Of a stretch of DNA of 22,254 nucleotides, positions 1-21,455 are shown in pieces. The first letter of the stretch is position 1, and every line of letters starts with the position of its first letter. A model generated the notes under the pieces. The model was not told the DNA's origin. It searched no databases and saw only the letters and a program-made list of their open reading frames with translations. Source of the DNA: Welwitschia mirabilis (lineage: Eukaryota); NCBI GenBank assembly GCA_051453625.1, contig JBOZIK010000001.1:8647711-8669964 (forward strand), written 5' to 3'. A program made the translations under genes and the position numbers.

Positions 1-1915
1 TATTTGGATTGGGCTTTAGACAAATTTTTACTATGATAGGATATGTATTTAAAATCATTTTCATAATTTTGACCAAGAACCCCACCCACAGTAATGTTTC
101 TTACATCACACATGAGTTTAAAATCTTTAGTTCAATTAGAATCCATGATAATAGGTTTAGAAGAAATGTTTTCCTTAAGTGTATCAAATACAAGTTAACA
201 TGAATCATGCTAATCAAATTTTTAGCATCTTTTTTGAGTAATAAGGAAAGGAATTTATAGACCTTGGCATAATCATAAATAAAACAATGATAGAAACTAT
301 CATAACCAAGGAATGATCTAACTTGTTTGATATTGATTGGAGGAATAAGATTTTTAATGATACCAACTTTTATGGAGTTCATCCTAATCCCTTTCTTAGA
401 AATATGGTGATCTAAAACAATTCCATTATTAACAAGGAGAAAACACTTTTCCCATCTCAAATGTAGATAACTTTATATACATTGATCCAATACTTTCTCT
501 AATCTCTCTATGATTTATTCCAAAGTTTCATAAAAGATGGAAAAACTATTTATAAATATTTTAATAGAATCCTCTATTATGTTAGAAAAGATCCCTATCA
601 TTACTTGTTAAAAAGTCCTAGGGGCATTGCAAAGTTTAAAAGACATTCATCTAAAGGAAAATGTTCCAAAGGATGAGGTAAAAGTTATTTTTTCTTGATC
701 TTCACTTGCTATGCAAACCTTATTATGATCATTATACCCATCAAGAAAATAATAGTAGGCATGACCTTGGATTTTATTAAGCACTTAATCAAGAAAGGAT
801 AAAGGACAATCATCCTTTTAGTGACATAATTAAGTTTTCTAAAATTAATGCACATTCTCTATTTCCCACCCTTTTTTGAAACTACTATCAAAGGGCTAAT
901 CCACTCACTATTAGATATAGCATAGATGATCTCAAAATTCATAATTTTATAAATTTCATCTTTAAATACATACTTGAGGAGTAGGTTGAGCCTTATTTGG
1001 GGTTATCTAATAGGTTTAGCATTATCTTTAAGGTCAATTTTGTGTTGGACTATGGAAAGAGGAATGAAAACTAAGTCTTTATGGATCCAAGAAAAAGCAT
1101 CTTCTTTAGATGTCATAAGGAAGATCAATTTGGATTATTTTTAAAGAGTAAGAAGATAACTTATTATGAAAGGTTTCTTCATATGTTTAAATAGAAAAAT
1201 ATATTTTAGACATTTGGACAACTCCTTCAGTTATAAGTTAGAATTTTCACTTGTTGTCTTATCTGTTGTGGGGATAATAGACATTAGATGATACTCTTCA
1301 AAAAATATTTCTATTAAATAAACATGTTAGCTTTTTCTTAGTTGAAATATTCCTCATTCTCATACTTAAGATAGTGTATTTTAGTCAGGTCATCATATAA
1401 AATTAGTTCATATAGCATTATTAATCTCTCCTCAATTAGGTGATGTTGTAAAAATAAGGTTGGTTTAAGTTCTTCTTATAAGTTAAACTTATCTCCTATT
1501 TCATTTTTAATTACATCAAAAAATCAAATGATAAACTTCTTATTTCCTATATGACATTCCATTATTCTATTCGTGCATCAATGATATAGTAGACAAATTC
1601 ACAAAATGCTGTTCCTAAGAATAGTGGATAATATTCATCATGTTCTATCTCAATGATGACTACATTAATGGGGTAAAAATATTCCTCTATTTGGATGACT
1701 AGGTCCTTTATAATTCCTAAGGTTTTCTTTATTGAGGTATCAACCAATTTCAAGATGACTCATGTAGGTTCTATTCTATTTTCCAACCTAAATCTTTTAC
1801 ATATGTGAAGCGGTATAATGTTTACACTAGCTTCTATATCAATTAAAGCTTTTTGAATTCTTTTGTTTCCTTCTAAGGTGACATTCATGTCTCTGAATTT
1901 AAAACACTTTTTCAT
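1..1915 (-). pseudogene. pol: Element A pol remnant (aspartic protease, RT, start of RNase H)
   Basis: ALIDIEASVNIIP (~1810-1850) matches the DLGASVN protease motif. IKIFINSFSIF (FINS at 545-556) is a decayed EVFMDDFSVF. ORF 101..460 RWEKCFLLVNNGIVLDHHIS...VRSFLGYDSFYHCFI matches NWEKCHFMV-EGIVLGH...VRSFLGHAGFYRRFI. FKLMCDVRNITVGG (~80-125) is the RNase H start. Many stops and frameshifts. Confidence 0.93.
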
Positions 1916-2174: not shown

Positions 2175-3862
2175 TTATCATGTGATGTTAATGGGAAGTT
2201 ATATGAGTTCAAAATCTCTATATCATGTTCTTCATTACTTTTTTTCATTATTTTTAGAATTTTAGACCTTATGGGTAAGAGGTGTTGTATCATTTTCACA
2301 TCTTGTTACTGACTTCAAATATCTTTTGACTTCATTTGGATTGGTTAAAGGTTAAAATGCAAGAGACACTTGTGATTTTTGATTGGAAAGCATAGTTTAT
2401 TGAAGTACATTCACTAAGTATTCAATATTATTGTTAGTCTTTTCTTGCATATTTTTCAATTCTTTTATGGAATCTCTAAGTGGATCATTTTGATTTGGTT
2501 GAAAATTGAGGTTATTTAGTTGAAAGCTTGAATTTCTAAATCTATTCTAAAAACATTTTTATTGTTATTGTCGACCTAATATTTGTTGATGTTTTGGTTG
2601 ACTTTTAAAGTTAGGTATTCTTTGGTTGAATGCACATACCTCCTCAAACATCATTTCTTTATAAGTTGGTAACAAGACACATTCTTTAGTTGAATGACTG
2701 TTATCTTTACAAATATCACATGTTGAAGTTGTGTTTTCATCTTTTACTACTTTTCATTAACTATCATTTGAGTGTACTTCTCTAAAGTGGTATTGAAATC
2801 ATTAATTAAGTTTATTAAGTTACCTTTCTCTTCTTCCTTATCATGTTTTACTTCTTTCAAATATTTTATGATTTGGCCTACAGTTTAACTTTCCTTAGTG
2901 GATTTTGGCCAAGTTTGACTTATCTCTACTAGAGTTTCCAATGCATTCCATACATTCTCTAAGACTAAGTTCATCAAGTTTCCATCATAAGAAAATTCTA
3001 CAAGTTGTTTAGTTTGACTAGTTAATCCATTGTAGAAATAATTTATCAATTCTTCTTTATATAATTTATTAACAGAATTGTAGTGAATAGCTATAATAAA
3101 ATGCTCATAAGTTATGGCATAGTTCTTGTGAGTTCTAATTGAAATTTGGTAACCTTCTTTCTTATTTTTCTTATGGTACTTTCATTCAAAAATCGTTTAA
3201 TAAAAACTTCTTGCAGTTGACATCATGATTTAAAACTCTAGTATGGAATGGTTTTAAGCCAAAGTTTTGCCTTTCCTCTAAGTATGAATGGAAAGATAAT
3301 CATGTAAGTATGATTACTAATGCATTTCTTCCCATTTCTTGAGGTAAGTACAAGTTGTTCAATGATGGCTAGATGTTAGAAAGGGTCTTCCTTAGGTTTC
3401 CCTGAAAATGTTGGATAGGCACTCAAGTTTCTTAATTCTATATCATCATTGATAGATAAATCAAAAGAATTTTGGATTTCACATTTTTCTATTAGCAATT
3501 AAATCTCTAAGTATAACATTTACATTTGAAGTCGAAGTTCTTATCATGATCAACATAATAGACAAAGCAACTTATTTTTGTTTTTGTAGGTATTTCAACA
3601 TAGATGAAGAAGAAATAACACAATCTATTTCTAAGCTATTATTTTCACAATTTTCTTTTGCAAAATTTAACTCTAAAAGAATAAAAGTAGAAAAATCCTC
3701 TTCTTCAATTCTTGAAATTTGCGTACCTACAATGTGCATACCTAGATTTTTATTGAAGTTCAATAATATTTCTATAATATTTTCTTTAATCAAGTTTTGT
3801 TCTCTCTGACATTTCATCTTTCTACTATAATTCACCATATTCCTACATACTTTAGATAGCAA
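2175..3862 (-). pseudogene. gag: Element A gag remnant with CCHC zinc knuckle
   Basis: YPTFSGKPKEDPF*HL...IFPFILRGKAKLWL (~3250-3420) is the retrotransposon gag core. CDICKDNSHSTKEC at 2679-2720 is an intact CX2CX4HX4C. ORF 3572..3862 is the probable N-terminus; the start is uncertain. Confidence 0.85.
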
Positions 3863-3890
3863 ACAAAGCCAAAATCAAAAACAACTGAAA

Positions 3891-4127
3891 GTCATCCAAC
3901 TGGTCATGGGGATGATAGAAGAATGACAATTACAATAGTAGAAAATTGAAATGAAAGAAAAATTATCATAATTAAACAAATAGACTATCATTCATCTTGT
4001 TGTAAGGATGATAAATAAGATGACATTATTTTTATTACTGCTACTAACAGAAAGAAAATTTATGAAAAAATAAAAGAAATTTAAACTATAATTTCTAGGG
4101 TCATGGAAACGACAGAAAGAATGACAA
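3891..4127. repeat. Three degenerate ~40-bp quasi-palindromic units at ~98-bp spacing in the element A leader
   Basis: gtcatccaactggtcatggggatgatagaagaatgacaa (3891-3929), tatcattcatcttgttgtaaggatgataaataagatgaca (3986-4025) and ataatttctagggtcatggaaacgacagaaagaatgacaa (4088-4127). Confidence 0.7.
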
Positions 4128-4295: not shown

Positions 4296-5528
4296 TGTTA
4301 CGATGTGAATTTATGTAATCTTTAAGTCCTTAGGAAAAATGTATAAATCATAATACTTACAGAAAATACACACTATTATAAATAAGAGTTAACCCAAATG
4401 TCAGAATCTATTGAAGGAACTAGGCTAGAAGTTAGAGAATTGATTTACAAAGTATTTTAATATTTTCTATTTTAGTAAATCAAAGTAAACAACAATGAAA
4501 ATGCAATGCAAGCTGGATGATGATGAAATAAAATGAATGAAATGTAAGCATGATGAGTTCTATTTGTATTCCAATCCTCCTGTCATAAGAATTAGTTCTT
4601 ATAACTCAAATCAATTACAAAGATTTTATCACTTATTCCTAACTAACATAAACTATAAGATATGCTAAACAAAATGCAAATATGAAATGGACTAAAGAAA
4701 ATGCAATGCAAGATCTAAACTAACAAATTTAATGTTAATAAAGTTTGTCCTTATGATCTAAATAAACTATGAATTTATCACTAAACCATAATCAAATTAA
4801 ATCATAAGGGACATTTACACAATAGTAGTGAAAAAAGTTCTTAAATTAATCATCAATTTAACATTCACTTACAAAAACGTAGTAGCACCTCAATTAAGGA
4901 TAATTAGCTTAACACCAATGTCATCTTCTCTTTGTAGCTAAGGGATGAATGTCGTATCCTTCAACCTTCCGTCATAAGAATATTTGATACAAAAGATGGA
5001 AATGGAAGTAAAGGAAAGAGAGGGTATTTATAGTTTTACGTTAAAGTTTTAGAAGCACAATCCTAAAAGTCATAGAAGAAATCCTAGCAACCCACATGAG
5101 TTACATGACCCCTTACAAAGATAATTATTTTCATCCATACAAAAATAGGTGTCATCTTGAGTATCATAGAAATCATACTCCTATGCAAAAGATGACCCAT
5201 TAGCTTCAGGCCCTACATTCAACTTTGCAAATTCAATCTATGTCAGTAGAGCTATCATCTTGCTATCGTGGGAATAACAAAAGGGATGACAAACCTATTT
5301 ATCTTCTATCTCAAATGGAAATGAGTTTTCTACATGGTTAATCTTTCCTTCAAATCATGAAGTATCAAAATAAGCTTGAGATTCCTCCAGATATGCTAAA
5401 AATTGCATGTTTTAGTGAACATCTTATCAATTCTCCATAATCATCAGAATTGCATCCAAACCTATATAAATGTCCTACAAAAGTACTCAAAATACACCAT
5501 CAAAATCCTACAAATTGGCATCGCAACA
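4296..5528 (-). repeat. 5' LTR of element A (1233 bp)
   Basis: TG...CA termini with a 9/10 terminal inverted repeat: tgttacgatg (4296) and catcgcaaca (ends 5528). It abuts the PBS on one side and element C sequence on the other. Confidence 0.9.
5025..5033 (-). promoter_or_regulatory. Candidate TATA box in the element A LTR
   Basis: Minus strand CTATAAATA followed by a pyrimidine-rich tract (ccctctctttcctttacttcc), oriented toward gag. Confidence 0.6.
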
Positions 5529-6323
5529 TGTAAAATGTTAAAACAAATAATTCATAAGAAGTCTCTAATATCATCTTAATTTCTTTTCAATTTTAGCTCT
5601 TATACAATCATAAGTGGCATCTTTTAAGCATTTGATCATGTTAAGTATTTAGTATTATGACACCTTCTTCCAATATAATTAAACATTTTGTTCATGAAGA
5701 AGACAATGCTACATTGCCAGTGAGCATTTATAGCCTTGATTCAGTTAAATATATCACAAATAAATCATTAGAGATACCTTACAAGTAAGTGTCTATAGCC
5801 TATATGTAGTTAACTAAACCCATTAAAACTGATCAAAAATAAAATGGTACTTTTTGGAGAAGAGATATTATTTTTCTTTTGATTTTACTTCTTATATATT
5901 TTTTAATTCACATAGGAGGGATCATTGACTTATTAGCCTAATTAAAAAATATTTATACACATAAATGCTTAAAATAAAGACATATCATGAAAGTAGAAAA
6001 ATAATCTTTTCTTTTCTTGATTTCAAGTTAGAGATATCAAATGAATGAATAAATTAACAAAAGAACTTAAAAATAAAAATAACTTACTCTTGAAAAAAAT
6101 GATTCCTCTAATCTCAGCCAAACCATGGAATTACAAAAATATCTTATTCTTGTTTATGTAAAAAGGCCATTACCCAAGACTAGTAAGTCTTATGAACTCA
6201 TCATATGATGAATGCAGTGGGTGGTCTATAAGCCTTATGAAGTAATGCCATTTTCGAAGAGGTAGATGATAAGGTTTAATTTAGTAAAGGCTTATCTTAT
6301 GCTGAGAGTGATATTTGGAGTTT
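5529..6323 (-). mobile_element. Element C, left fragment: post-pol region of an older B-related Athila-like element
   Basis: 5529-~5995 aligns by eye with B ~8535-9005 (e.g. atgtagttaactaaac and ttttggagaaga are shared). ~6160-6185 aligns with the B pol end ~9172-9200 (aaaggccatta). Confidence 0.85.
5624..5937 (-). pseudogene. Putative extra post-pol ORF, element C copy
   Basis: Translates as NDPSYVN*KIYKK*NQKKNNISSPKS...FS*LHIGYRHLLVRYL**FICDIFN*IKAINAHWQCSI / LLHEQNV*LYWKKVS*Y*ILNMI (one frameshift), colinear with the B copy. Confidence 0.5.
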
Positions 6324-7700
6324 TATTTATACTGTAGTATAATTAAATTGAAATAAAATAGTTGGATACTAAATATCATTCTTTCATAGGAATAATTATG
6401 GTGACTGAGTAAAAATTATACAAAATTTTTCTTATCTTGTAATTAAAATCAAAGAAAGGAGAAAATAAAAAGTTTAAGAATTTTGTTGAAATTTTAAGTA
6501 GAAAGGTAGAAAAATGAATGAGCTTTATAGTTTAGCCTTATTTGTCCTCCATGAATTCTTCAATTCAATGATATCCTATGAATTCCTATGATATACTTAA
6601 ATTATCAAGTCATAATGCCTCAGTTCACAATGACATAATCATATTTACCAAATGAGTATTTATGAATTCAATAGTCACTTAGTCCTTTATATCCCTTTAA
6701 TAAGAATGAAAAGTAAGGAATTATAGTACTTAAAATCTGTGAAAGAAAAGTAGCTTAAAATAACTAACTTATAGAATTCACTTGATTAGGAATATACTTG
6801 ATAATATAGTCTTTCATAAGCATTAAAAGTAAAAATATATTTGTAATTAAAAATCTAAAGTGAATAACTACTTTGTATTAAATCAAAAATACACATTACA
6901 TCAATGAAAAAAGGAAGCTAGTATGAACTCCTTAAGGTAGTCTTGAAACAAATTTGCTTCCAAAGAATGTGCTTAAAATGCCATGTTAATTATGACACTT
7001 TAAGAATTTCTACTACTTTCTAATCAAAGGATATTACAAATGAGGTCTCAAGGCCTTTTTATAAGTGAGTATGGGATGAGGGGTGGTTGAAACCCTTTTG
7101 GCCTCTAGCACTAGATGGTTACTTATAAAGTTTGTCATCTTATATTAAGTGAGGTTTTTATCTTCTTATGTTAGTTAAGGATTGTCATGATGAGTTTAAC
7201 ATTGGATGCTAATGCTTATATCAACTGATGATATTATCATGTGTTTCCTATACTATCTAACTTAACATTACTACTTACCACTACTATGTGTCATTTTTGT
7301 TACCGCCATTTGGTGTGCCTCAAGAATGCTAGTTATTTCTAGTGTAAAATTAGATTAATCCCTTAACTACATTCAGCTAAATTTTTTATGACAAGCCATG
7401 CTTCATAATTGGAGAAACGAGAGAACATGAGAATTGAAATATTTTAATTACAAAAACTAGTGATATTGATGTCCTAGACAGTAGCGCCAGTGTTTTAAGC
7501 TAATTAATCTTTATCTTTTAGCATGTCCTTCAAAATGTGATAAATAGATTAAAAATGTCATAGAAAGATGATAAATTTACAAATAGTATTAAAAAGAGGA
7601 AAAAGACATAATTATATGATAAAAAAAATATTCTGATATCTTTAATAAAGCTACATTGATTAGATAACTTGACTAGAATGTTAATGTTCACATGTGAGCA
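6324..7700 (-). repeat. 3' LTR of element B
   Basis: Direct repeat of 15294-16651; I counted 19 mismatches in 120 ungapped bases (6361-6480 vs 15331-15450). Decayed termini tatttat.../...gtgagca. TATA-like ttataaaaa on the minus strand at 7056-7064. Confidence 0.93.
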
Positions 7701-7714
7701 CACTTGCTAACTAG
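7701..7714 (-). other. Polypurine tract remnant of element B
   Basis: Minus strand ctagttagcaagtg directly precedes the TG of the 3' LTR. The position is right and it is consistent with a decayed agttggggggtg-type tract. Confidence 0.55.
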
Positions 7715-8631
7715 AATTTTACTATACTACTAGGAAAAAGTTAATAATAAAATGATCAACATAGAAAAATTATCTAATTAAAAAAAACTCCAGTATAATA
7801 GATGATATAACTTTATAAGATGTTTATGATTAATTTTTAAAAATGAAGCATTAAAATCAAAAAAATTCTATAAGAACTAGATGCCATAAATTTTTTTCCC
7901 TTGAAGAGAAAATGGATAGGTAATTTTGTATCACATAAAGGTCCAATGACACTTGGCTTTATAGAATCTATTTTGCTTGTATTCCCTCATCGCAGTTGGG
8001 GTTTAAACTTTGGACCGTTGGGTCCATGTGTCTATGAACTTCCACTCTAGAAAGCAGTCATTGATGACTCCATAACCTTAACTAAAGCTAAACTTTATCC
8101 TCTAAATCTTATAATAAAAAATTTTAAGATAATTTTAAGAACATATCCTTAGGAAATATTTATCTGAACATGAATTTTATTAAAAAAATATGCAAAGTAA
8201 TGTAACTAAGCTATGATGCAGAAAAAGAAAAACTATTTAATGAGATATGACTACCTTTTATTTCTTGTTGAAAATGATAAGTGAAAAGTTAATTCATAAA
8301 AATATTTTATGTCTTATGATGTTATTTCACATGAAATGGGCCTGAAATGGAATGGATGTTAAGGATGATAATATGAAAAAATGAATTAACGATGCAAATG
8401 ATAAATAAAAGAGATAACCTATGTAAATTAATGGCCTTATTATTTTTTGTGATTTATAGTGGATTTTGTTACTTGAAAAGCATAGTATTTATCAAATAAG
8501 TTATAATAATTTAAGAAATCATAGCACATCTTAAGTATAAAAGTTAAAGACAAAATAGTGCATAAGCCCTCCAATTCTTTCTTTTTGTTTTTGTTATTTT
8601 CCTTTTTCTACTAGCATATATGTACTTTGTT

Positions 8632-8942
8632 TTAAGCATTTTGAATCACATTAAGGATCTAGTATTACGAAATTTTCTTCCAATAGAGTTAAGCATTTTA
8701 TTGTGTAAAAAAATTGGTGTTGCATTACCAAAAATTATCTATAGGCTTGATGCAGTTGATTATGTCATAAGTATATTATTAGAGTTGCATTAGCAGCAAG
8801 CATCTATAGCACTAATGTAGTTAACTAAACTTGATTGAGTGATTAATAAGATGTGATTTTGGAGAAGAAATATTATTTTTTAAATTCTTCTTCTCATATT
8901 CATCTCATTATGCACATAAAGAGGAGTCATTGGATCATTTTC
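8632..8942 (-). pseudogene. Putative extra post-pol ORF, element B copy (env-like position)
   Basis: One frame without frameshift: SNDSSLCA**DEYEKKNLKNNISSPKSHLINHSIKFS*LH*CYRCLLLMQL**YTYDIINCIKPIDNFW*CNTNFFTQ*NA*LYWKKIS*Y*ILNVIQNA. The stops are compatible with C>T decay of CAA/CAG/CGA codons. Confidence 0.5.
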
Positions 8943-9174
8943 CTAATTAAGAAAAACCTTGTTCTCACTAAAATATTTAAACATAAGAAACACAATATGA
9001 AGGTGGATTCCACATTTTTATTCCATTTTTATCAAAATTAAAGACCTTAAGTAAACATGGCTTTAACAATCATACTAAAAATATGTGTAACTTTTCTTTA
9101 AAAATTCATAAGTTTACTTAATCATAATAATTAATTAAAATGATAGTGAGGCCACTTATTATTAATTTTTATTA

Positions 9175-12100
9175 AAGGCCATTAACCTAGGTTTATAAGT
9201 GTAAGTCGATGGGAGGTGTGGATGGTAATATTTAAGATAATAACCATTAACTTTAAATTCTTGATGAGTTGTATTATTTTCAATGAGAAACACATCATTT
9301 AATAAAACATTTTTTTTATTAGATATAGGTTTTTCCACTTAGAAACTAGTTTATCTAGAAACAAATGTAATCATGAAGTATATAATAAAACTAGCTTTTT
9401 TTTTCTAAAACATTTTTCTAATGATGTTTTAATCATGTAATTTCTTTATCTTTTCTTTGTTGATCTTTATATTCTCATAAGCATATTTTCTAATTTCATC
9501 TAATGCATTAAGTGAGTAGCCTATTTCTTCGTTGCTATCTCAAAATCTAAATTCATGTGTTTGATTTCTTAATATACCTTATATTCAACTTATATAAGTA
9601 TATGATAAGATTTTCCATAGATTAATCTAAATGAAGACATTCTTAATAGTGTTTTATAAGTTGTTTGATAGGCCTACAAAACATCATTAAGCTTATAGGA
9701 TGAATCCTTCTTAGTTGATTTTACTACTCTTTGCATAAGATTATTTATTTCTCTACCAATGATCATAACTTCACTACTAGTTTGAGGATGATAAGAAGTT
9801 ACAACTTTATGAGTAACCATAAACTTAGCAACAATATTATTAAATATTATATTATAAAATTAATTTTCACTATGACTAATTAAAGCTTGAGGATAACCAA
9901 ATCTCATTAAAATATTTTTCTTAAAGTACTTTACTATAGTTTTTGTATCATTAGATCAATAAATGCATGCTTCTACCTACTTAGTGATGTAATCGATATA
10001 AATAAGAATTTATTAGTATACATTTAAGAAAGAACATAGGTCTTGGAAATAAATACCCAAATATGGAAAGATTAAACAACAAGAATATAACTCAAAGGCA
10101 TCATATGTTTCCATGAAAGGCTAATGCATTTATGGCAAATTTTACATGTGTTGCTATAGAGATAGGAATATTTAAAAATGGATGATTAATAAAAAATAAA
10201 GTAAAGGATTTTCATGGTGCTTTTGTTAGTAAAATAATGATCATCACAATCCTTATAATAATAATGCTTTAGAATGTCATTAATTTTAAATGAAGAAATA
10301 CATTTATGAATGACTTGATCTTAGTAATATTTAAATTGATAAGGAGCATCTAAAAAAAAGTATTTATCCTAACTTAAGAATTTCTTTCTATTGTTAAATA
10401 TCTAATAAGAGGTAATAACCTTGAAGATTAAGTAATTTCTAATATGAGCAAACTAAGATATTTTTAAAATGTAGGGAAGATTTTGAGCTAGAAAAGTATC
10501 ATTGATGGAAATATATGTTTGCAAGTTTTCCTAAGTTAATCATGAAAGATAGTTTACAATAATATTATTAAATTCATTTTTATCCTTAATTTATAAATAA
10601 AATTCTTACAAAAGTAGGAGTCATCTAATTAATCTATGATTGGAGTCCTTTTTAGAAAGTAGATATCTAAGGATTGGGTGGTTTGTAAATCAAGAAGATA
10701 TTACTTAAATTTTTCTAAGGCAAAGACTATGAGGAGAAGCTCTTTGTTAGTGATAGTGTAGTTTAGTTAAGTATCACTTAAGGTTTTACATCACACATAA
10801 TTTTAAAGGGTAACTTCCAATCAGGTAATTAAATAATAGAAGTGAAGGTAAGTTTTCCTTTAAGATCATCAAAATATTACTCACACTCATGAGTCTAGTT
10901 AAAAGAGGCATCTTTACTTAGAGGATTATAAAATGGTTTGGAAATTTTAATAAGGTCTTTAATAAATCTTCTATAATAACTTGTGTATTTTAAAAATGAT
11001 CTAATATCTTTTTGTTTTTATGGAGTAGGCAAGTGCATGATTAGTAAACTTTCACAGGTCTAGTTGAATTCCTTTAGAGGGAATAACATGTCTTAAAGCT
11101 ATTCCTTTATTGACCATGAAATGATGATTTATCCAATTTAATACAATGCATTTTTTTAATGCATCAAGTAAGGACACATTCTAAGTAATACAGATTATGA
11201 TCAAAAGAGGCTTCATAGGTAGAAAAATTATTTATAATAGTTTTAGTGCATAAGTCTAATAAATCAAAGAAAATTCCAAGCAGACATTTTTAAAATGCAA
11301 TTAGGACATTACAAAAACTAAAAAACATTTGTTTGTAGGAAAAACTTTCATATGGATAAGTAAAAGTGGTTTCATCTTGATCCTCAAAAGAAATTTGTAT
11401 TTAATTGTACTTTAAATACCCATCTAGAAACTAGTAAAAAGGATGTCTAATAAGTTGTTCTAAGATTTGGTCAAATAATGGAAGAAGGGAATGATATCTT
11501 GGTGAAATGACATTGAGCTTTCTATAATCTATGAACATTCTTCATTTAACTACTAGTATAGTAGGAATAGTTAATTATATTCATTTTGTACTAGGGTAAT
11601 TTTAGAATTCTTTACTACTATTTAGATTGAACTTTTCTATTTACTATCTGAGATTAAATTAATAATTTCATTATCTAAAAGCTTAATTACTTCATTTTTT
11701 TCCTACCTCTTTCAATGTTCGATTGATTTTTTACTAAGATTTGATCAATGGCTTAGCATTTTCTTCTAAGTAAGTGTCATATACGTAAATGCTAAGGTCA
11801 ATGTCTCTAATGTCAAAGAGGGTTCATTTAATTTCTTGTTTATGTTTCCTCAAAATGTTTAGCAATTTATTTTCTTAGGATAAAGATAATAAAGAACTAA
11901 TAACTATTACAAAAATAGATTTATCTCCTAAGAAAGCATACTTAAGATTATTAGGAAGGGTTTTAAGCTCAATGGATTCTTTATTCTGAGTGATGATATA
12001 AAATTCTTACTCTTGAGGAAGATCTAAGATATGGTTCTTATGAAAGTGAGAGGAAGATTCTTGGTCTTCATGAAGGCTCTCTATTTTATCTACATGTCCT

Positions 12101-12700
12101 ATTATATCATCATTAAAAGTTAATTTTAGCATTAAAAACAATCAATTATATTATCATATTACTAAAGGATATTTTCATTACACTATTTCTATAGTTAATC
12201 AAGGAATTTAAGGTTTCTAGGAAAGGACTTTTCCAAGATGATAGTACTAACTGATTTATTGTGTACTCTATATTTAAAACCTAAAATCCAATGGAAATTA
12301 ATAGCTATCTACCATAACCATGACATATTCAATAACGCATAATGAAATTTTCATAGAATTATTAGTGAGTTAAAGTTGGATCTTGGGGTTTTTAAGTCAT
12401 TCAAAGCCTAATTTTTATAAGTACTATAGGAAAGCAAGTTTACACTAGCTTCTAAGTCTAATAATTCTTAGTTAAGTTACTTGTTTTCTATTTTAATGAC
12501 AATCATAGGTAGTCAATATCTTTATATTTAGGTGGAAATTGGTTTTGAAAAATCACACTAGTTTGTTATGCTAAAAAGGCTTTACCTTCTATGTTTGTAT
12601 GCATTTTTACCACATACATATCCTTGAGGAACTTTACCTATGAAGGAACTTACTTAATTTCTTCTAGGAGGGGCATATTTATCTTAACTTCTTTAAAGAT
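9175..12700 (-). pseudogene. pol: Element B pol remnant (PR, RT, RNase H, integrase)
   Basis: LLDLEASVNLLSYS (~12425-12467) is the protease. KTIINNFSTY (IINN at 11227-11238) is a decayed FMDDF. PDWKLPFKIMCDV and NYTITNKELLLIVFALEKF are RNase H. KKDSSYKLNDVL*AYQTTYKTLLRMSSFRLIYGKSYHI (~9600-9715) and EFKVNGYYLKYYHP (~9220-9260) are Athila-type integrase. Confidence 0.93.
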
Positions 12701-14702
12701 CTTGAAAGATTCTAATTGTTTTTTCATGATGTTGTCCTTTCTAAGCTATTAGGAAAAAGGTAAATGTTCTTTATAGATGGGTGAAGAATCCTCTATTATT
12801 TCATTATTATCTTTGTCTTCCATGGAAATTGTTTATTCATTAATTATGTTTTTCTTGCATTTACTTTTCAACTATTTTTCATTTCTAAGATGAATGTCTT
12901 TAGATTCTTATATTTCTGTGGTTTCTAAACCTTCTATGAATTTAGCTCCTTTAGGTCTTGACTATGAACTCATGGGGATCTTTCTAGGTTATTTTGATTT
13001 AGAGAAGAGAGAATTTATTAAAGTAATGGAATTTGATTTTGCATAGTTTTTTCAATATTTCTTAAGAATAAGGAGTGTCACTTAATAATTCTTTCATGTT
13101 TATGATTAATTTGGGTTTGATCGCAATTAACCTAGGCTTGGTTACTAGGTAGATGAAGAGGCATTTTGGTGATTTAATGGAAAGGGATAGAAGGATGATG
13201 AAGGAAATTTCTTTATTAGTTATTGTAATTTTGATTAGATGAATTATCTTATTTCCAAGAAAAATTAGAGTGGTTTCTTTACCTAGGATTATAGGTGTTG
13301 GAACAAGGATCACTTTCTTTTATTTTTCTTCTAGTGTCTTACTATGTTAACATGTTTGTTTATTATGTTTTAAAATACAATGATGAAGGGATACTTAGTT
13401 TTTTCATGTAAGACTATGTGGTAAATTAGAAATTTAGGTCTAATAATAAAAGGTCCAAATGAGATGAAAACTTATTCTAGTCTTTTTATTAGCTTATATA
13501 TCATCTTAGTAACCTTAAAATTATTAATTACATTGAACACACTTATGGACCTAATAGACTGAAGAAATCTAGATGGTTTAATTGATGTTTTCAATTCCTA
13601 TAGCTTTTTACTATAGTTTTAATGTAATTCCATACTTCATCTAATAGAATACTAAGAAAAATAGTCCTACACAACATCTTGACTAACTTCCTATTATTTG
13701 TTAATAACACATTACAAAAAAAAGCTAATTTTCCTTTCTAGATCAAATCCATGTTGTGGGAATTTTTGAAGCAAATACTGAAATCTAAGGATTGATACTG
13801 CTTGATTATTTTTTTACTGATAATTCATTATATCTAACCTTAAAGCATTCATCTTATAATTTGGCAAAATTTTAAAAATGAAGGCTTTGTTTAAATGGAT
13901 ATAGATTTTAATGGATAAGGATTCAAGGATGTAAATCCACAATTTAGCATTTTTCCTTAGGAATAATAAAAATATATTGAGCCTATGGGTGTCATAGGTA
14001 TTGAGGTATTGAGGTATGGTAATTAGTACACACTTGAATTCATTAGAATATAGGTAGGGTTCCTCCGGTTCTAGGCTATAAAAGTGGAAAAGTAATTATA
14101 TGATGGACAACTTAAATTCTAACCTTTATGCTATCAACAATTGTATTACGTAATAAGATGTTCTTAAGAATTGGGATTATAGGTAGTCATAAAGGATTTT
14201 CTTAAGGGGATTATTGTTTTACTAATTTTGTAGTTTATTGTACTCAATGTTTTGAGTTATTTTCTAACTAAGATAATATGTCTATAGTTTATTTAATAGT
14301 TTTTGATTTGATCAGGATATATTATTGTTAAAAAAGTGTTAAAAACTAGATTGAGAATTTGATTTTTATTAAGAGGCAAAAGCATATTCTTATTGGACAT
14401 CATCATAAGTTTGGTTTTTAAATGGAATTATTTATTATTTATTACCCTTAATGTTAAGATTCATGTTGTTTTTGAAAGAATTTTTAATTAATCTATTTGA
14501 TTCATTATGAATCAAAGGCATATAAGTTTCAAACTTAGTTTAGAGAATTTTTAGATAGGACTAAAATGATATAAGTTTTATAAAGTTTACTAGAGGTCTC
14601 AAGAAAAATCTAGAAGAGTTTTACATAGAAGAGCTAGTGATATTGGTGAGGAAAAGTAGTGGTGCTAGTCAAATTAGAAGGTATGGATCAAGAAAAATCA
14701 TA
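12701..14702 (-). pseudogene. gag: Element B gag remnant
   Basis: KILYDYL*SQFLRTSYYVI (~14145-14200), FYSLEPEEPYLYSNEFKCV (~14027-14085), AKLWIYILESLSIKIYIHLNKAF (~13880-13950), and a decayed zinc knuckle FLIYHIVLHEKTKY at 13391-13432. Both boundaries are approximate. Confidence 0.82.
13996..14019. repeat. 8-bp tandem triplication within B gag
   Basis: aggtattg aggtattg aggtatgg. Confidence 0.8.
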
Positions 14703-14724
14703 AATGATCATACAATTCATCAAA

Positions 14725-14762
14725 TAATTAGAGTAACAAGGTTTAATTAGAGTAATAAGTTT
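14725..14762. repeat. 19-bp tandem duplication in the B leader
   Basis: taattagagtaacaaggtt / taattagagtaataagttt (2 mismatches). Confidence 0.8.
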
Positions 14763-15270
14763 ATAAAAAAATATAATAAAGACTAAAATGATAACATACT
14801 TGAAATAGATCCTAAGAATAATAAAATCTAATATTTTTTAGATAATTTTAATAGAAAACTATAAAACAAAAATAGAAACTTTGACTACTAAAATAAAATT
14901 TTCAAAAAGGAAAAGTACAAAAGAAATGAGTTCCATATTTATTTTTTTGCTTTATTTTTAGTTGCAACCTATAAAAACTTTGTTATACCTATAATACAAA
15001 ATATTTGATATCAAAATATAGTTTAGGTTGGAGTAGAAAAGCAAAAGAAAACTCTAAATTAGACTAGTTTAAGCATCACTAAAAATGAAGTAATACCACC
15101 ACTAGAAAGAAAAGAGAGGTGAAAGCCACACAAAATAATAATAAAAAGGACTAATTTGAGTTTTACTAAATAGGACCAATACTAATTACTAGAAAAATGT
15201 AAAATAGAACTAAACTAAAATCTTGCAAGAAAGCAAAACTATGTTTTCTTAAGAAGATACTATGCCATTA

Positions 15271-15291
15271 TCCCTACTAATGACACTAAAA
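15271..15291 (-). other. Primer-binding site of element B (heavily decayed)
   Basis: Minus strand ttttagtgtcattagtaggga, 2 nt from the LTR end. It differs from ttttggcgccgttgccgggga mostly by C>T/G>A changes. Confidence 0.75.
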
Positions 15292-15293
15292 TC

Positions 15294-16651
15294 TCTTCAT
15301 GGTTTACTATAGTTAAATTGAGATAATCTAGGTGGATGTTTAGTATCATTCTTCTATAGGAATAATTATGGTGACTTAATAAAAATTACACAGAATTTTT
15401 CTTATCTTGTACATACAATCAAATAAAGGAAAAAATAGAAACTCTAAGAACGTTGTTGACACTTCAACCAAAGAGGTAGAAAAATAAATGATCTCCAAGG
15501 CTTAGGCTAATTTATCTTCCAGTAATATTTTAATCCAATGATATCTTATGAATTCCTAAAATATACTTAAATAATTAAGTTATTATGATTGAGATTCTGA
15601 TGACATAATCTCATTTACCATATGAGGATCAGTGAATTTACTAGTTACTTTGTTTTTCATAAACCTTTAATAATAATGGAAAATAAGAGCTTATAATACT
15701 AAAAATCCATTAAATAAAAGTGACTTAAACTAATTAACTTGTGGAATGTACTCAGTTAGCAATATAACTTAATAATATAATTTTATCATAAGAATTACAA
15801 GTATAAAGTTATTTGCAGATTGAAACAAAAACTAAATAACTACTTTTATTAAATCAAAAAATACACATTACATCAATGGAAGAAGGAAGCTAGTATGGAC
15901 TCCTTAAACTAGTCTTAAAAAAAATTTGCTCCTAAAGAAAGTGCTTAGAAGGCCATGTCAACTTTGACACTCTAAGGTATTTTATGACTTTTCAAATAAA
16001 GGATATTACAAATGAGGGATCAAGGTTTTTTTTATAGGTAAGCATGAGGTTAGAGGTGGTTGAAAACATTTTGGCTTTTATCAATAGCTAGGTTATTATA
16101 AAGTTTATCATGTTGCATTAGGTAAGGTTGTTATCTTCTTTTATTAAATGAGGGTTGTTATGATGAATCTAACACATGGATTTTGAATGATAGTGCTTCT
16201 ACTAACTAATGACATTATCATGTGCTCTCCATTTCATATCACTTAAGATCACTACAGGTCATTGTTACATATCATCCTCATCACTACACATGTCATTAAA
16301 TGTCCTAGTTATTTCTAATATAAAACATGGTTAATTCCATTATTCCATTTAGCTAATTTTTTCATGATAAGTATAAATCCTAAGAATTAAAATGTTATAA
16401 CTAGAAGGATTAGCAATGCTAGTGTATTAGGAGGCTGCACTAACCTTTTAAGTTAATTGATTTTCATCTTTTAGCATCTCCTTTAGATGCAATAGTAGCT
16501 TGAAAAAATCATGGAAATATGACAAGTTTACAAATAATATTAAAAAGAGGTAGAAGACATAATTTCATGATAAAACATTTATTATGATATCTTCTATTAA
16601 GCTAAATTGATTAGATAATGTGGTTCGAATGTCAAATTTTTCATGTTAATA
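15294..16651 (-). repeat. 5' LTR of element B
   Basis: Direct repeat of 6324-7700 over its whole length (shared blocks such as aaaaatacacattacatcaatg and aaaggatattacaaatgagg). Decayed termini tcttcat.../...gttaata. Confidence 0.93.
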
Positions 16652-17244
16652 GGTTTTCTAAATGAAAAGGCTTAAGATGATGATTGTACAAGTGGTAGTA
16701 CTTGAGTGGTTTTAGGCAAGATAGACCATCAAGAAAACATGTTTTTAATGCTTTTAATTTTTTTCAATCTAAATCTAATCTAAAAGGTAAATCTAATTTA
16801 AAATCATGTAATAAAGCTAAAAATTTTAAGCAAAAGGATTTTCTAATGTATGTCATATATGAAGATTCAAGATGGTAATTAATGCAAAGATCGGATGATG
16901 AATTGTAATTATGCAAACCATTTTGAACTAGGAGATAATCTATATATATTTTTATGCATGAGTCCATAAAATTAGGAGGAAGATAAATGCAAGTATTAAA
17001 ATTATGCATTCAAAGTTAGAAAGAGTCCATCCTTTTACTTATTTATGCTTACTGAACATCTTGTATAATACATTATTATAAGATGAATACAAAAGTGAGT
17101 TACAGAGCATTAAAGAAGGTGAATGTTTATTAAGATTCCATAACTAAAGAAGGTTTATCTTCTTTATTGATATTTGGATCTTATTTAATATATAAAGATG
17201 AAAATGAAATGATTTGACTTAAGAACTTATTAAGAAAAAGATTC
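16652..17244 (-). mobile_element. Element C, right fragment (continues in frame into 6318-6170 once B is removed)
   Basis: Flanks B with the TSD. The frame of ORF 16764..17009 continues past one TGA to the insertion site and resumes in frame at 6318. The fragment ends at the N gap. Confidence 0.75.
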
Positions 17245-17344
17245 NNNNNNNNNNNNNNNNNNNNNNNNNNNNNNNNNNNNNNNNNNNNNNNNNNNNNNNN
17301 NNNNNNNNNNNNNNNNNNNNNNNNNNNNNNNNNNNNNNNNNNNN
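17245..17344. other. Assembly gap (100 N, probably a placeholder of unknown size) hiding the C/D junction
   Basis: Run of exactly 100 N. Confidence 0.99.
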
Positions 17345-18323
17345 TCTTCCTCTTCTTCTTATGCTAAATTACTAGCTTCTTTAACAGTGTCTGCGACCTT
17401 ATACCTTACTACAATCAGAGCCTTTTTCATGTACCTAACTCAAGAATCCAACCTCTTCAAGTATGAAAGAATCTCTTTAGGAGAGGCTCACTTAGAAGAT
17501 GAATACTTGCAAGATTTCTTAGATCTAGCAAAAATGTTCATGTGGGATAAAGTTGCATACCAAATGGTAGACATAAGAATTAAATTTTCTAATTTTGGAT
17601 GCAAATGAACTCTAAAATAGCAAAAAATATTAGAATCAAAACTAAATAAGGAAGAGGCCTAGTCTTGTGATACTCTAACTATGAGATCATGTTTTTTAGC
17701 ATAATGGTAGGAGCATTAATAGAATGCCCAGTTCCCACTAGATATAACAAATAATCTCTATATTTGAAGGCCCTATCATGATAACCCACGAAAATAAGAA
17801 ATTATAAGTGAAAACTAAATGCAAATACTAGTACTTTGGGGTAAGTTATGAGGTGAATAGTGTGGTTTTCCAATGATGAAATTTACCACAGAGCTTTCAT
17901 GTAACCTCTTTCTTATCCTTTATGGAATCACATAATGGCCAAAACTTCTCATAATCTCCTCTAAGAAGATTTGTAAGGGAGGTAATAAGATTTATAATAA
18001 TCCTAATATTTCTTCCCAAAATAAAGGTTGTTAGAATAAAAGAGTCATCATCAAAAAAGGAATTGTAATACAACATGTGAGTGAGGAAAAGGTAGGCTAA
18101 CATTAAGACATCAAGAAAAAAAGATAAATCATGCTCATTTAAGATTCTTACCACATCTTTGAGTTGAAGCAATAAGCCTTTTCTGGTAGATAGGATTCTT
18201 TTCAAACTTCTTTGAAAACCTATCTAAGACTTCATTGGATATTCTAGAGTAAAAATGCCCTCGATCTTTGCTTACTAGCCCTTTTTGACATCTTCTTGAG
18301 GGATCTTCTGCCATTGAAAGCAT
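17345..18323 (-). pseudogene. Sirevirus env-like / putative plant transposon protein ORF, frameshifted
   Basis: ORFs 18135..18323 and 17897..18205 join by a frameshift and continue as LFTS*LTPKY*YLHLVFTYNFL / GYHDRAFKYRDYLLYLVGTGHSINAPTIMLKNM...RPLPYLVLILIFF. This shows the FYxN, TxVxGxxI, DxxLLYxxxxGxxINxP and LPY motifs I recall for this family. The 3' end is uncertain. Confidence 0.75.
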
Positions 18324-18604
18324 GTGGTAATTCCTAAATATAATAAAACTTGAGAGAGATAGCTATATCTAAAGGAAATAGATGGACAGGAATGAATGAA
18401 AAATGTTAGGACTCCATAAGATTTTATAAAGAAGGGTGATTAAGTCAGATTTAAAAAAATATCAAGTCCATCACCTTAACTTCCACACTATAATCCTAAA
18501 GGTCTAGTTGATTAATTTATAATCCAATCAACCCAATGAGACTTACGTTATAACATTTTTATATCCAGTTAACCAAATGCAAGATACGATTGACCATCCT
18601 ACTT

Positions 18605-21455
18605 TTAGTTAGAGGATAGAGAGACAACTCCTAGTTCACTATAAAGCCTTAGAATGTTACCAAATTTAGGGATTTTTTAAAAATATCAATAATTTATCTA
18701 TCAGTAGTAACAAAATTCATTGAAATGTTACTTTTTCTACTAGATCTCTAAGGAAATGATGTCTTAATTTAATATATTTAGTTCTAGAATGTTAAATAGG
18801 TTCTTTGATATATTGATTGCACTTGTATTGGTACAAAAGATTAAAACCTATTAAAAATCTACTTCAAAGTTTTTTATTTCCTTCATCCAAAAAAATGGAT
18901 ACAACAATTTCCTACTACTATATACTCTACTTCTACTATTGAATGGGAGATATAATTATATTTTTTACTTGTCCATTCTACTAAGCATGATTCTAAAAGA
19001 AAGAAATTATCATTTATGCTTTTCTTATTATCTTTATACCTAGCCTAATATACATCACCAAATCCTATAAGTTCAAAAGATGTTTTTATAGGATACCATA
19101 GTTTATAGTCACTCGTGTCTTTTATGTACCTTATGATTCTTTTGATAGCTTGAAGATATAACTCTTTTGATTGGGTCTGATATGGTAACACTGAATATTA
19201 TATCATGTCTACTTCTGATTAGATACAATAGACTTCCTATCACACTTCTATAAAGTTTTTGATCTACATATTTTACATGTTCATCAAGACTAACTTTATA
19301 AGAAGTTGACATAGTTGTATCAGTTGATTTTTCATTCTCTAGCCCAAATCATTTGATTAAGTCCCTTGAATATTTAGATTGGAATATGAAAATTTCATGT
19401 TTTACTTGTTTGATTTGGAGACTAAGAAATATACTAACTTCATCAAGCATACTCATCTCAAAATCTATTGTGCTAGTAAATTCTTTTTAGAGGACCCCAT
19501 TTGAGACACCAAAAATTATATCATCTATATAAATTTGAATAATAATAAAATCATTTTTTAGATTTTTGATAAATAATGTTTTATCCATAGTTTCATGAGT
19601 ATAACCATTTTAATTGAGAAATATGGCTAGTTTTTCTTACCATATCCTTGGAGCTTGTTTTAATCCATACAAGGCCTTTTTACATCTATACACATGGTTT
19701 GGTTTATATGGATATATAAACCCTAAAGAGTTTTTTACATAGATGTCTTTATTAAGTGTTCCATTTAGAAAGGCACTTTTCACATCCATTTGATAAAATT
19801 TAATGTTCTTAAAAGTTGCATAAGATAAAAACATTCTAATATTATCTAACTAGCTAAAGGAGTAAAAGTTCCACTTACATTTTTTCCTTTAATTTGGTTG
19901 TAACGTTGTGCTACTAATCTTGCCTTATTCTTAACTACATCACACTTGTTCTTAAAAATCCATTTTATTCTAAGAAAATTTTGGTCTTTTGGTCTTTCAA
20001 CAAATTTTCACACATCATTCCTTTTGAAATGTTGGAGCTCATATTGCATGGCCATCATCCACTCTTTATGAGATTCTGCCTCTTCAAACTTTTTAGGTTC
20101 AATTTGTGATACATAGCAAATGTGAGCATAAAACTTTTTTAGAGAATTCCTTATTCAAATTTTTGAGCTAACATATCCAATGATGTATTCTAAAGGGGTA
20201 TCTTTTATCTTTTTAAACTTTTTTAAAGTAACTACTTGAGTTGCCTTTTATATATTTTTGGTTAAAACTTTTTTTATTATGCGAGTGCTTGGAGTTATGT
20301 TTTCTTCACCATCCAAAGGAAGAAGTCTTATGCTAAAATAATCTATTTGTACATTTATAGATTCTTCCACTATTAGACTTCTTTTGTTGAATACTTGATA
20401 AGCTCTACTTCTAGTTGAGTATCCAAAAATATTACTTCCTTATCCTTTGACTCAAATTTAATCAAGCATTCTCTATCTTTTAAAAAAAAGAAATTACTCC
20501 CAAAGACTTTAAAATATGAAATATTTAATTTTCTTCCTTTCCAAATCTCACAGGGCATTTCATTGATTCCTAGTCTAAGGTAGACTCTCTTTATAATATA
20601 GTAAGTGATGCTTACTGCTTTACTTTAAAAATTTTTTAGCACCTCCTTATCATTTAACATTGTTCTAGCCATTTCTTGAAAGACTCAGTTCTTCCTCTTA
20701 GTAATTCCATTTTGTTGAAGATTATTTAGAAGTGAGAGTTAATGTTCTATACCATTATCTACACAATACTTTTTAAACAAATGATTTTCAAACTCTCCTC
20801 TATAATCACTTCTGATTTTCTTGATGGTGTAACCTTTCTCGTTTTGGATTTTGTTGCAAATTTCAACATAACTTTTACAAGTTTTAGCTTTGTTTTCAAG
20901 AAAAACACCCCAAGTAAATCTATAATAGTCATTAATCATTGTTAAAAAATAACATTTATCCATTAAGTCTATGTGAATAACATCAAGAGGCATTATTGTG
21001 GAAACTAGATTTTTGCTTTTGTAAGAAGTCCTAACTTGTTTTCCTTTTCGACATACATCACAAAGCCCAAGCTTTTTAATGTTAATCTTGGAAATTCCTT
21101 TCACAATTTATTTTTTAATAATTATTTTAAGATAATCATAATTTACATGTCCTAAATGTTGCTGTTATAGTCTTCTTGATTTACATGATAGAAATAACAT
21201 GCAAATAAAGACTAATACTTTAAACATTATCTATTCTATTTACCTTAAGAAGTACATCATTCATTTTTCCATGTCTAACTTTGCACTTTGTACTATCAAA
21301 AATAACTTTATACCCTTTATCAAAAATTTGAATAATACTAAATAATTTATGCTTAAGTCCATTGATATATAAAACTTCATTTATCTTAGGCATGTTACTC
21401 CATTAATGCTTTGAATTCCTTTGATATTTTCTCTTATGTTATCAGCTAAAAGATG
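18605..21455 (-). pseudogene. pol: Element D pol remnant (protease C-terminal part, GAG-pre-integrase, integrase, RT, RNase H)
   Basis: FADNIRENIKG (~21420-21450), HLGHVN...CDVCRKGKQ, IRSDYRGEFEN, YQMDVKSAFLNG...KALYGLKQAPR, YIDD at 19520-19531, YRSVIGSLLYL, RHHFLRDLV, and terminal ELGVVSLSSN* with the stop at 18605-18607. Confidence 0.95.

Follow-up and report, generated by a model that had tools for sequence, protein, structure and literature searches.

A frame restored by excising a Ty3/gypsy element from Welwitschia mirabilis DNA is most likely debris of nested transposons

The DNA analysed here, a stretch of 22,254 nucleotides from Welwitschia mirabilis (the window), contains a Ty3/gypsy element, B, whose excision brings two flanking pieces of reading frame into phase. 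This candidate ORF is most likely not a gene and would be ordinary debris of transposons inserting into one another. The reading that we prefer, and to which we give about an even chance, is that the flanks of B hold C, what is left of the 3' end of a decayed Ty3/gypsy element of the B family, and that the adjoining 168-codon frame is not a gene. The original prediction had reported a hidden ORF at the integrase position of C and interpreted it as a novel coding region of a non-autonomous element; the observation is partly confirmed and the interpretation partly supported.

The inserted element was delimited as follows.

6325..16652, minus strand: element B, Ty3/gypsy, about 10.3 kb (LTRs, matches to polyprotein P0001, integrase tail)
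about 6325-7695 and 15295-16652, minus strand: LTRs of element B (blastn and global alignment)
9165..9257, minus strand: end of B pol, running from FKVNGYYLKYYHP up to the codon ahead of three stops (matches a profile of 71 integrase tails)

The minus strand of B carries gag, RT, RNase H and integrase, in the domain order gag-PR-RT-RH-IN, without a chromodomain and with a long region after pol. The polyprotein P0001 matches it from 14083 to 9225 (tblastn), and FKVNGYYLKYYHP lies at 9257-9219. The LTRs, 1.36 kb long, are paired by blastn at 6335-7695 and 15305-16646 (73.9% identity over 1375 columns); a global alignment gives 76.3% identity over 1338 aligned sites and the Kimura distance between them is 0.29. 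The pol stop is found 20 codons past LKYYHP and some 1.47 kb from the 3' LTR. In its length of about 10.3 kb, its 1.36-kb LTRs, its pol end without chromodomain and the roughly 1.47 kb that follow pol, B resembles Athila-type elements of the non-chromovirus OTA superclade; C differs from these in showing none of their protein domains and only the post-pol part. PMC6317226 ascribes additional ORFs and long non-coding stretches to OTA elements, and sets Athila apart within OTA by its lack of the archaeal-type RNase H. The domain search of the window found no Athila ORF-1 domain and no archaeal-type RNase H, and the latter is likewise missing from the Pfam lists of the relatives of B.

Three collinear blocks of homology to B support the assignment of its flanks to an older element of the same family, C, as had been proposed.

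5519..6188, minus strand: C block 1, homologous to B 8527-9200, about 71% identical
4834..5518: C-only stretch of about 0.69 kb, absent from B (an indel between the copies), between two collinear blocks
4434..4833, minus strand: C block 2, homologous to B 8127-8548
3915..4035, minus strand: C block 3, start of the C 3' LTR, homologous to the B LTR over its first ~125 nt
17245..17344: run of 100 N, which hides the DNA upstream of the visible part of C

Block 1 covers the last 12 pol codons and the post-pol region of B. The alignment of C 6188->5519 with B 9200->8527 scores 359.5 (shuffles 56.8±8.8; z = 34), so the claim that the DNA downstream of the frame aligns with B stands. Block 2 (4833->4434 against 8548->8127) has 272 of 371 aligned sites identical and scores 89.5, a value reached by none of 300 shuffles (50.5±7.1). 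Block 3 matches the B LTR copies at 7560-7685 and 16508-16616, with 84 of 118 sites identical and a score reached by one shuffle in 1000; nine of 500 shuffles reach the score obtained with the other LTR copy. A search for terminal repeats of the C-only stretch (4834..5518) found none. The distance between C and B is 0.37, near the divergence of the B LTRs (K = 0.29).

The candidate frame spans the point at which B is inserted.

16767..17009, minus strand: stop-free run of 81 codons, core of the candidate ORF (translation MHNFNTC...)
16653..16763, minus strand: 37 more in-frame codons after one stop, with LKYYHL and LKPFHL (translation)
6170..6322, minus strand: left part of the candidate ORF, 50 codons, one internal stop, with IKPYHL (translation)
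16739-16764: tandem-repeat array inside the ORF, period 9, 2.9 copies (Tandem Repeats Finder)
16766-16796: tandem-repeat array inside the ORF, period 6, 5.2 copies (Tandem Repeats Finder)
6320-6324 (left) and 16653-16657 (right): GTTTT, candidate 5-bp target-site duplication of B (sole 5/5 repeat in the boundary zones)

Excision of B puts minus-strand 17009..16653 in phase with 6322..6170, which gives about 168 codons with two stops before a terminal TAA at 6170-6172; upstream of 17009 the frame is closed (10 stops in 78 codons). The letters and both minus-strand frames are exactly those reported earlier, but the continuity of the restored frame hangs on one of 14 candidate duplications: the 13 others match at 4/5 positions, and with nine of these the excised length would put the two pieces out of phase. 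A 5-bp repeat does exist at the ends of B, although the pair put forward earlier (6319-6323 / 16652-16656) matches at only 4/5 positions and the perfect pair is GTTTT; with either pair, 10333 bp are excised and the frame is preserved. The frame had also been described as ending at the site homologous to the end of B pol. Its stop is indeed nearby in the shared stretch, but it comes 8 codons before the position of the B pol stop and is out of the B pol frame.

Upstream of block 1, the homology of C to B ends abruptly at 6188, which corresponds to 9200 in B. Beyond this point, C 6324->6189 aligns with B 9420->9201 at chance level (51 of 500 shuffles reach the score). Neither an inserted-element terminus nor a deletion scar was identified at 6188/6189. 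The visible sequence continues on the other side of B, up to the 100-N gap.

16653..17244, minus strand: right flank of B, without detectable relatives, at the integrase position of a B-like element (profile, Pfam and tblastn negatives)

This flank has no significant DNA match to the rest of the window (scores reached by 9 and by 7 of 60 shuffles). It yields neither a Pfam family nor a tblastn match to P0001, both at E<=10. An HMM built from 71 plant integrase C-termini, covering the final ~200 residues of pol in related elements, gives 122.4 and 47.0 bits on the B frames, and 1.3 bits (E = 0.16) on the best of 12 frames of C. In frameshift-aware alignment, the integrase tail of B reaches 166.0 bits; the right flank of C reaches 10.6, below the null mean of 11.8±1.6 (156 of 200 nulls as high), and its left flank 13.4 (76 of 200 nulls as high). 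Among the listed matches of 126 polyproteins to the visible 0.73 kb of C, none falls below E = 0.007, and F-K-V-N-G is not present there. As had been noticed earlier, the integrase is thus firmly absent from C within the 0.73 kb visible upstream of the break, and the same 0.73 kb of the C interior lacks pol domains.

The proposed novel coding region finds no backing in the searches made with the frame itself. The 81-codon run and the next 37 codons have no phmmer match at E<=0.001 among 1,835,955,588 protein representatives, the candidate frame matches no Pfam family at E<=10, its best Atlas score is 0.77, and two tandem-repeat arrays lie within it. The structure prediction that had been suggested returned no confident fold (mean pLDDT 40.6), a value which, being obtained from a single sequence, is weak evidence either way. 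Relatives, a domain and a confident fold, the signs of a protein-coding frame that were looked for, are all missing, and a role as competitor or particle-loading tag is not supported.

The openness of the frame is harder to read. The two stops in about 168 codons from 17009 to the end are few, as remarked earlier, but the significance of this is borderline. In the right flank (16653..17244), a path of 197 codons (592 nt) with one frameshift meets a minimum of 4 stops; a 592-nt path with at most 4 stops has P = 0.003 under a window-trained null and 0.03 under a flank-trained null, both per stretch, and as the window has room for about 74 such stretches, the openness is borderline after multiple testing. 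On one-frameshift paths, known coding remnants have 2-5 stops and the B LTRs 9-17, against 4 in the candidate stretch. The window as a whole has 11 stop-free runs of at least 81 codons (2.3 expected), of which ten belong to the minus strand. Seven of these ten were judged, without a computed tally, to overlie regions with similarity to transposon proteins; two long runs are left unexplained, against about 1.2 expected. All the transposon genes share the strand of the candidate frame. Simulated decay since the insertion of B gives a mean of 3.5 new stops (P = 0.33 for two or fewer), so that the two stops seen among 164 sense codons are compatible with a frame still intact at the time of the B insertion.

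The three motifs on which the original prediction had relied exist, at 16706-16689 (LKYYHL), 16676-16659 (LKPFHL) and 6280-6263 (IKPYHL). Exact LKYYH is found only in the candidate frame and the B pol tail, with 0.02 occurrences expected per window, and the motif triple arises in 5 of 2000 composition-preserving shuffles. Nevertheless, their interpretation as an amplified integrase peptide is not supported. At the DNA level the copies resemble one another no more than shuffles do (score reached by 312 of 2000), and the window has 6 further sites with a comparable triple. The similarity of the left part (6170..6322) to the B tail is weak, reached by 4 of 300 shuffles, and 213 of 3000 shuffles reach the best local alignment of the read-through, with X at the break, to that tail.

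According to the preferred reading, what C retains would be the final dozen codons of pol, some 2 kb of post-pol sequence that includes the 0.69-kb indel, and the 3' LTR over its first ~125 nt. The 0.73 kb beyond the break (6189-6324 and 16653-17244), neither integrase nor similar to anything else, may owe its place beside the C tail to a deletion or a nested insertion, or may be an already dead interior. The frame would then be a run of open codons within DNA that is His/Tyr/Lys/Leu-rich and in part made of tandem repeats. It probably never served as a protein, and B would have inserted into it later, making the GTTTT duplication. Several observations speak against this account, namely the openness, the coding strand, the fit to decay, the shared LKYYH, the rarity of the motif triple, the second-best tile described below and the lack of a scar at 6189.

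A possible but unlikely alternative is that C was a non-autonomous relative of B, with B-like LTRs and 3' region, a replaced interior and a real lineage-specific ORF when B inserted, copied by the proteins of autonomous B-family elements. The sharp break just inside the pol end, followed by B-like sequence, the integrase missing from its expected place, and an openness like that of coding remnants and compatible with the neutral decay of a once-open frame are all in keeping with it. Moreover, LTR elements that share their ends with an autonomous partner are known: the LARD/TRIM class is described, in the part of PMC9033089 considered here, as elements whose LTRs enclose an interior that is non-coding or retrotransposon-like only in part, and whose ends resemble those of a helper family. 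C resembles these elements, and the rice pair Dasheng-RIRE2, in combining the 3' internal region and LTR start of B with no pol domain at the integrase position. Yet they are defined from many copies with both LTRs, and C is one broken copy without its 5' end; the window shows neither a 5' LTR, a PBS nor a second copy. The frame also lacks any relative among 1.84 billion representatives, is closed upstream of 17009 and contains tandem repeats, and in so heavily nested a region a nested insertion or a deletion would produce such a break just as easily. The stronger version, in which C stands for a family of integrase-less B-type parasites whose pol end was replaced by a lineage-specific His/Tyr-rich ORF with a kept and duplicated L-K-x-Y-H, open when B landed, seems very unlikely; duplicated integrase-tail peptides are not described for LARD/TRIM elements in the consulted part of PMC9033089.

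The 0.73 kb could instead belong to the long 3' LTR, or to an additional ORF after pol, of the Ty1/copia element situated on the right side of the N gap. In that case, copia would have inserted into the pol end of C and B later into copia, and C would be an ordinary element with its pol beyond the window. This scenario, which we regard as rather improbable, draws on the dominance of nested insertion in the window and on the strand of the copia element, which is that of C; its pol end, placed by eye near 18605, gives way to a purine-rich tract, after which comes TG, nothing is recognisable between 18600 and the gap, and a minus-strand CA (6194-6193) is within a few bases of the homology break. 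However, the adjacency of the two sides of the gap, written as 100 N, is only presumed, no repeats link them, the LTR would have to measure at least 2 kb, and the copia 5' LTR is outside the window. Hardly credible is the idea that pol is complete and the peptide just its long C-terminal tail, with the integrase either beyond the gap or decayed past recognition. It can invoke the LKYYH identical to the B tail motif and HSQHKISLYXIKPYH in the left flank, the second-best match to the B tail among 4298 tiles and weakly collinear with B HQEFKVNGYYLKYYH. For the visible sequence it is largely refuted by the background integrase score of C, as B still reaches 166 bits despite an LTR divergence near the C-B distance. 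The tail would need to extend over at least 180 codons ahead of LKYYHL, yet in 66 of 76 motif-bearing relatives pol ends at most 40 residues past the motif (median 24), and no gypsy integrase is found right of the gap.

If true, a non-autonomous element with multiplied helper integrase tails would give a handle on how parasites compete for the machinery of their helpers. The evidence falls short of this, and the ordinary picture is that of an old Ty3/gypsy copy truncated near its pol end, with later insertions around it; the outcome is a corrected map of the nest. It also invites caution, as open stretches of 80-170 codons and repeated peptide words on the transposon-coding strand of decayed DNA with 26% GC are not in themselves a sign of a gene. 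C differs from known truncated or nested remnants of plant LTR retrotransposons, for which the part of PMC1940013 used here reports rapid DNA loss, in the missing scar or inserted terminus at its break. It is like them in its setting: the window is a nest of at least four interleaved elements in 22 kb, and C is cut at both ends, its LTR giving way after about 125 nt to the gag of a neighbouring element.

The window consists of decayed plant LTR retrotransposons nested in one another, every one of which is coded on the minus strand. The elements recognizable around the open stretch studied here are the following.

About 1-1250, minus strand: reverse transcriptase (RT) and RNase H of the Ty3/gypsy element A, by protein similarity
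About 3435-3139, minus strand: gag of the same element A, by protein similarity
About 6325-16652, minus strand: the Ty3/gypsy element B, delimited by its LTR pair
Right of the second N gap, minus strand: a Ty1/copia element with gag-pre-integrase, rve and RVT_2 domains

The A RT used as query retrieved plant polyproteins, the best being P0001 from Handroanthus (E = 3.8e-54), and the copia pol, read by eye, ends near 18605. The window has a GC content of 26% and two runs of N (1916-2174 and 17245-17344). CpG is nearly absent (1-3 per counted stretch of 136-1371 nt) and the two B LTRs differ by 194 transitions and 123 transversions, a composition consistent with the long decay of methylated repeats. 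Upstream of the A gag core, stop-free runs of 117 codons (3456-3806, plus strand) and 100 codons (3575-3874, minus strand) overlap on opposite strands; at least one of them must therefore be non-coding, which indicates that long open frames arise easily here.

The LTRs of B (6335-7695 and 15305-16646) share 73.9% identity over 1375 blastn columns and 76.3% over 1338 sites in a global alignment; their Kimura distance of 0.29 indicates that B inserted long ago. The similarity of the two copies fades out near 6325 and at about 16646-16652, and GTTTT (6320-6324 and 16653-16657) is the sole perfect 5-bp direct repeat adjoining these ends. The duplication originally proposed removes 10,333 bp, as does GTTTT, but it is shifted by one base and matches at only four of its five positions. 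In this T-rich DNA, 13 further candidate 5-mers match at four of five positions, and 9 of the 13 remove lengths that break the frame. Since a true duplication of the age of B need not be perfect, the continuity across B of the minus-strand frame under study (17009-16653 joined to 6322-6170) is likely, but not secure. The C-terminal region of the B integrase (9218-9790, minus strand) alternates between two frames in its match to the family profile (122.4 and 47.0 bits) and must thus contain several frameshifts; a single-frame reading of this region exaggerates its decay.

The sequences flanking B belong to element C, an older remnant whose kinship with B downstream of the stop of the frame is clear. 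C 6188-5519 aligns with B 9200-8527 at about 71% identity (score 359.5, shuffles 56.8 ± 8.8), homology resumes between C 4833-4434 and B 8548-8127 (score reached by 0/300 shuffles), and C 4035-3915 matches the first ~125 nt of the B LTR at the expected spacing (84/118 identical sites; score reached by 1/1000 shuffles, and by 9/500 against the other LTR copy). These collinear blocks imply that C retains the end of pol (its last 12 codons), the region that follows pol and the beginning of the 3' LTR. About 0.69 kb of C (4834-5518) is missing at the homologous place in B, and no convincing terminal inverted or direct repeats marking a small inserted element were found at this indel. Within 3436-4035, the ~125-nt LTR start of C is followed by the A gag region, which leaves no space for a 5' LTR of A; element A looks either 5'-truncated or fused to C by a deletion. 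The possibility that the B-like block is the 5' LTR of A, also inserted in B, was rejected, as the collinear homology continues into the LTR start of B itself.

Similarity to B stops upstream of 6188. The left flank (C 6324-6189) is at chance level against B 9420-9201 (51/500 shuffles reach the score) and the right flank (16653-17244) has no match in the rest of the window. For the left flank, MAFFT suggested a different phase of the ancestral pol frame (LFENGITS.. versus LIENNTTHQ..); this suggestion was discarded, its scores being reached by 51/500 and 998/2000 shuffles. Both parts of the frame translate exactly as originally quoted, but its end had been placed at the site homologous to the end of the B pol, which the alignment contradicts: in the 19 nt common to C and B, its TAA pairs with a TAA lying outside the pol frame of B, and C read in the B pol frame gives TY*SWVMAFLHKQE*, terminating at the third stop of B. 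The frame thus ends about 8 codons ahead of the homologous pol stop, in a different frame.

The original prediction also held that an integrase is missing from C upstream of this stop. Pfam is insensitive here, as the tail of B itself was assigned no family, and the B integrase used as a database query gave no matches. An integrase-tail profile was built from the last ~200 pol residues of 71 of the 126 plant polyproteins collected with the A RT. Against the 12 frames of C it reached at best 1.3 bits (E = 0.16). When the profile was aligned to DNA with frameshifts allowed, B scored 166.0 (null 13.2 ± 1.8), the right flank of C 10.6 (null 11.8 ± 1.6; 156/200 nulls as high) and the left flank 13.4 (76/200 nulls as high). 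As the distance between C and B in non-coding DNA (0.37) is near the LTR divergence of B, an ordinary integrase in C ought still to be detectable, and the absence was thus borne out. No gypsy integrase was found right of the gap either. The frame could alternatively be the long tail of an ordinary pol, a reading made very unlikely by the fact that pol ends within 40 residues of the motif in 66 of the 76 relatives that bear it. A resemblance of the right flank to the SH3-like part of integrase, noticed by eye (IRKSF...KFLALL...FKLDLPFRL), was rejected (Smith-Waterman z ≤ 2.9 in 27 comparisons, 1.3 bits in the HMM search, frameshift-aware profile score under the null mean). The post-pol region of B (7909-8500, minus strand) scored 19.9 against the integrase-tail profile, just over all 200 nulls (maximum 19.5), which may be due to the low-complexity end of the profile.

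The motifs LKYYHL, LKPFHL and IKPYHL, as well as the FKVNGYYLKYYHP of B, are found where they had been reported. LKYYH occurs in the window only in the frame and in the B tail (0.02 expected per window), HSQHKISLYXIKPYH ranks second among 4298 tiles as a match to this tail, and the triple, a pattern defined post hoc, arises in 5/2000 composition-preserving shuffles. The stretch is rich in His, Tyr and Leu, and when this composition is kept its similarity to the B tail is reached by 213/3000 shuffles. Comparable triples occur at six other places of the window in non-coding frames, with 0.43 loci expected per simulated window. A recent duplication is not apparent in the DNA of the second and third motifs, which is at chance level (312/2000 shuffles reach the score), nor inside the right flank (1622/2000). 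An amplified and selected peptide is unsupported; the motif copies may have arisen by slippage in a low-complexity pol tail or by coincidence.

The frame lies on the coding strand, a point in favor of a gene. A path over the stretch with one frameshift meets 4 stops in 197 codons, when known coding remnants have 2-5 and the B LTRs 9-17 (P = 0.003-0.03 per stretch), but these values fail multiple testing, since the window has room for about 74 stretches of this kind. Simulated neutral decay since the arrival of B gives a mean of 3.5 stops, and the two observed in 164 sense codons (P(≤2) = 0.33) fit such decay, which also speaks for a gene. Against a gene, the minus strand has 10 stop-free runs of at least 81 codons, seven of which were judged, without a tally, to overlie transposon protein similarity; two are left unexplained and ~1.2 are expected. 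Immediately upstream the frame is closed (10 stops in 78 codons).

Several scenarios may explain this structure. The one we favor, with about an even chance of being correct, is a truncated B-family copy adjoining non-pol DNA, in which the open stretch is not a gene. Non-autonomous LTR elements with helper-like ends are a well-known class (PMC9033089; for OTA/Athila features, PMC6317226), and the structural half of the original idea, a B-family remnant lacking an integrase at the expected place, stands; that C represents a true non-autonomous family seems rather unlikely. The functional half found no support: a phmmer search of 1.84 billion protein representatives gave 0 relatives of the frame peptide (E ≤ 0.001), Atlas returned 0.77 (low recognition), the single-sequence structure prediction of the 119-residue read-through had a mean pLDDT (40.6) that does not suffice for a fold search, and 6- and 9-bp repeat arrays form part of the frame. 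More improbable still is that the 0.73 kb of C upstream of the homology break is a copia 3' region reaching across the gap. No repeats joining the two sides of the gap were found. On the right side, Pfam searches of 17345-18601 in all six frames gave no family.

A second open stretch (17650-18300, minus strand), including an ORF of 108 codons (17900-18223), lies between the copia pol stop and the gap. The stretch has no match to the 126 gypsy polyproteins and the ORF no usable Atlas match. With 3-4 stops per 197 codons the stretch is at the level of known coding remnants, and its ORF could be an extra copia ORF or a product of chance.
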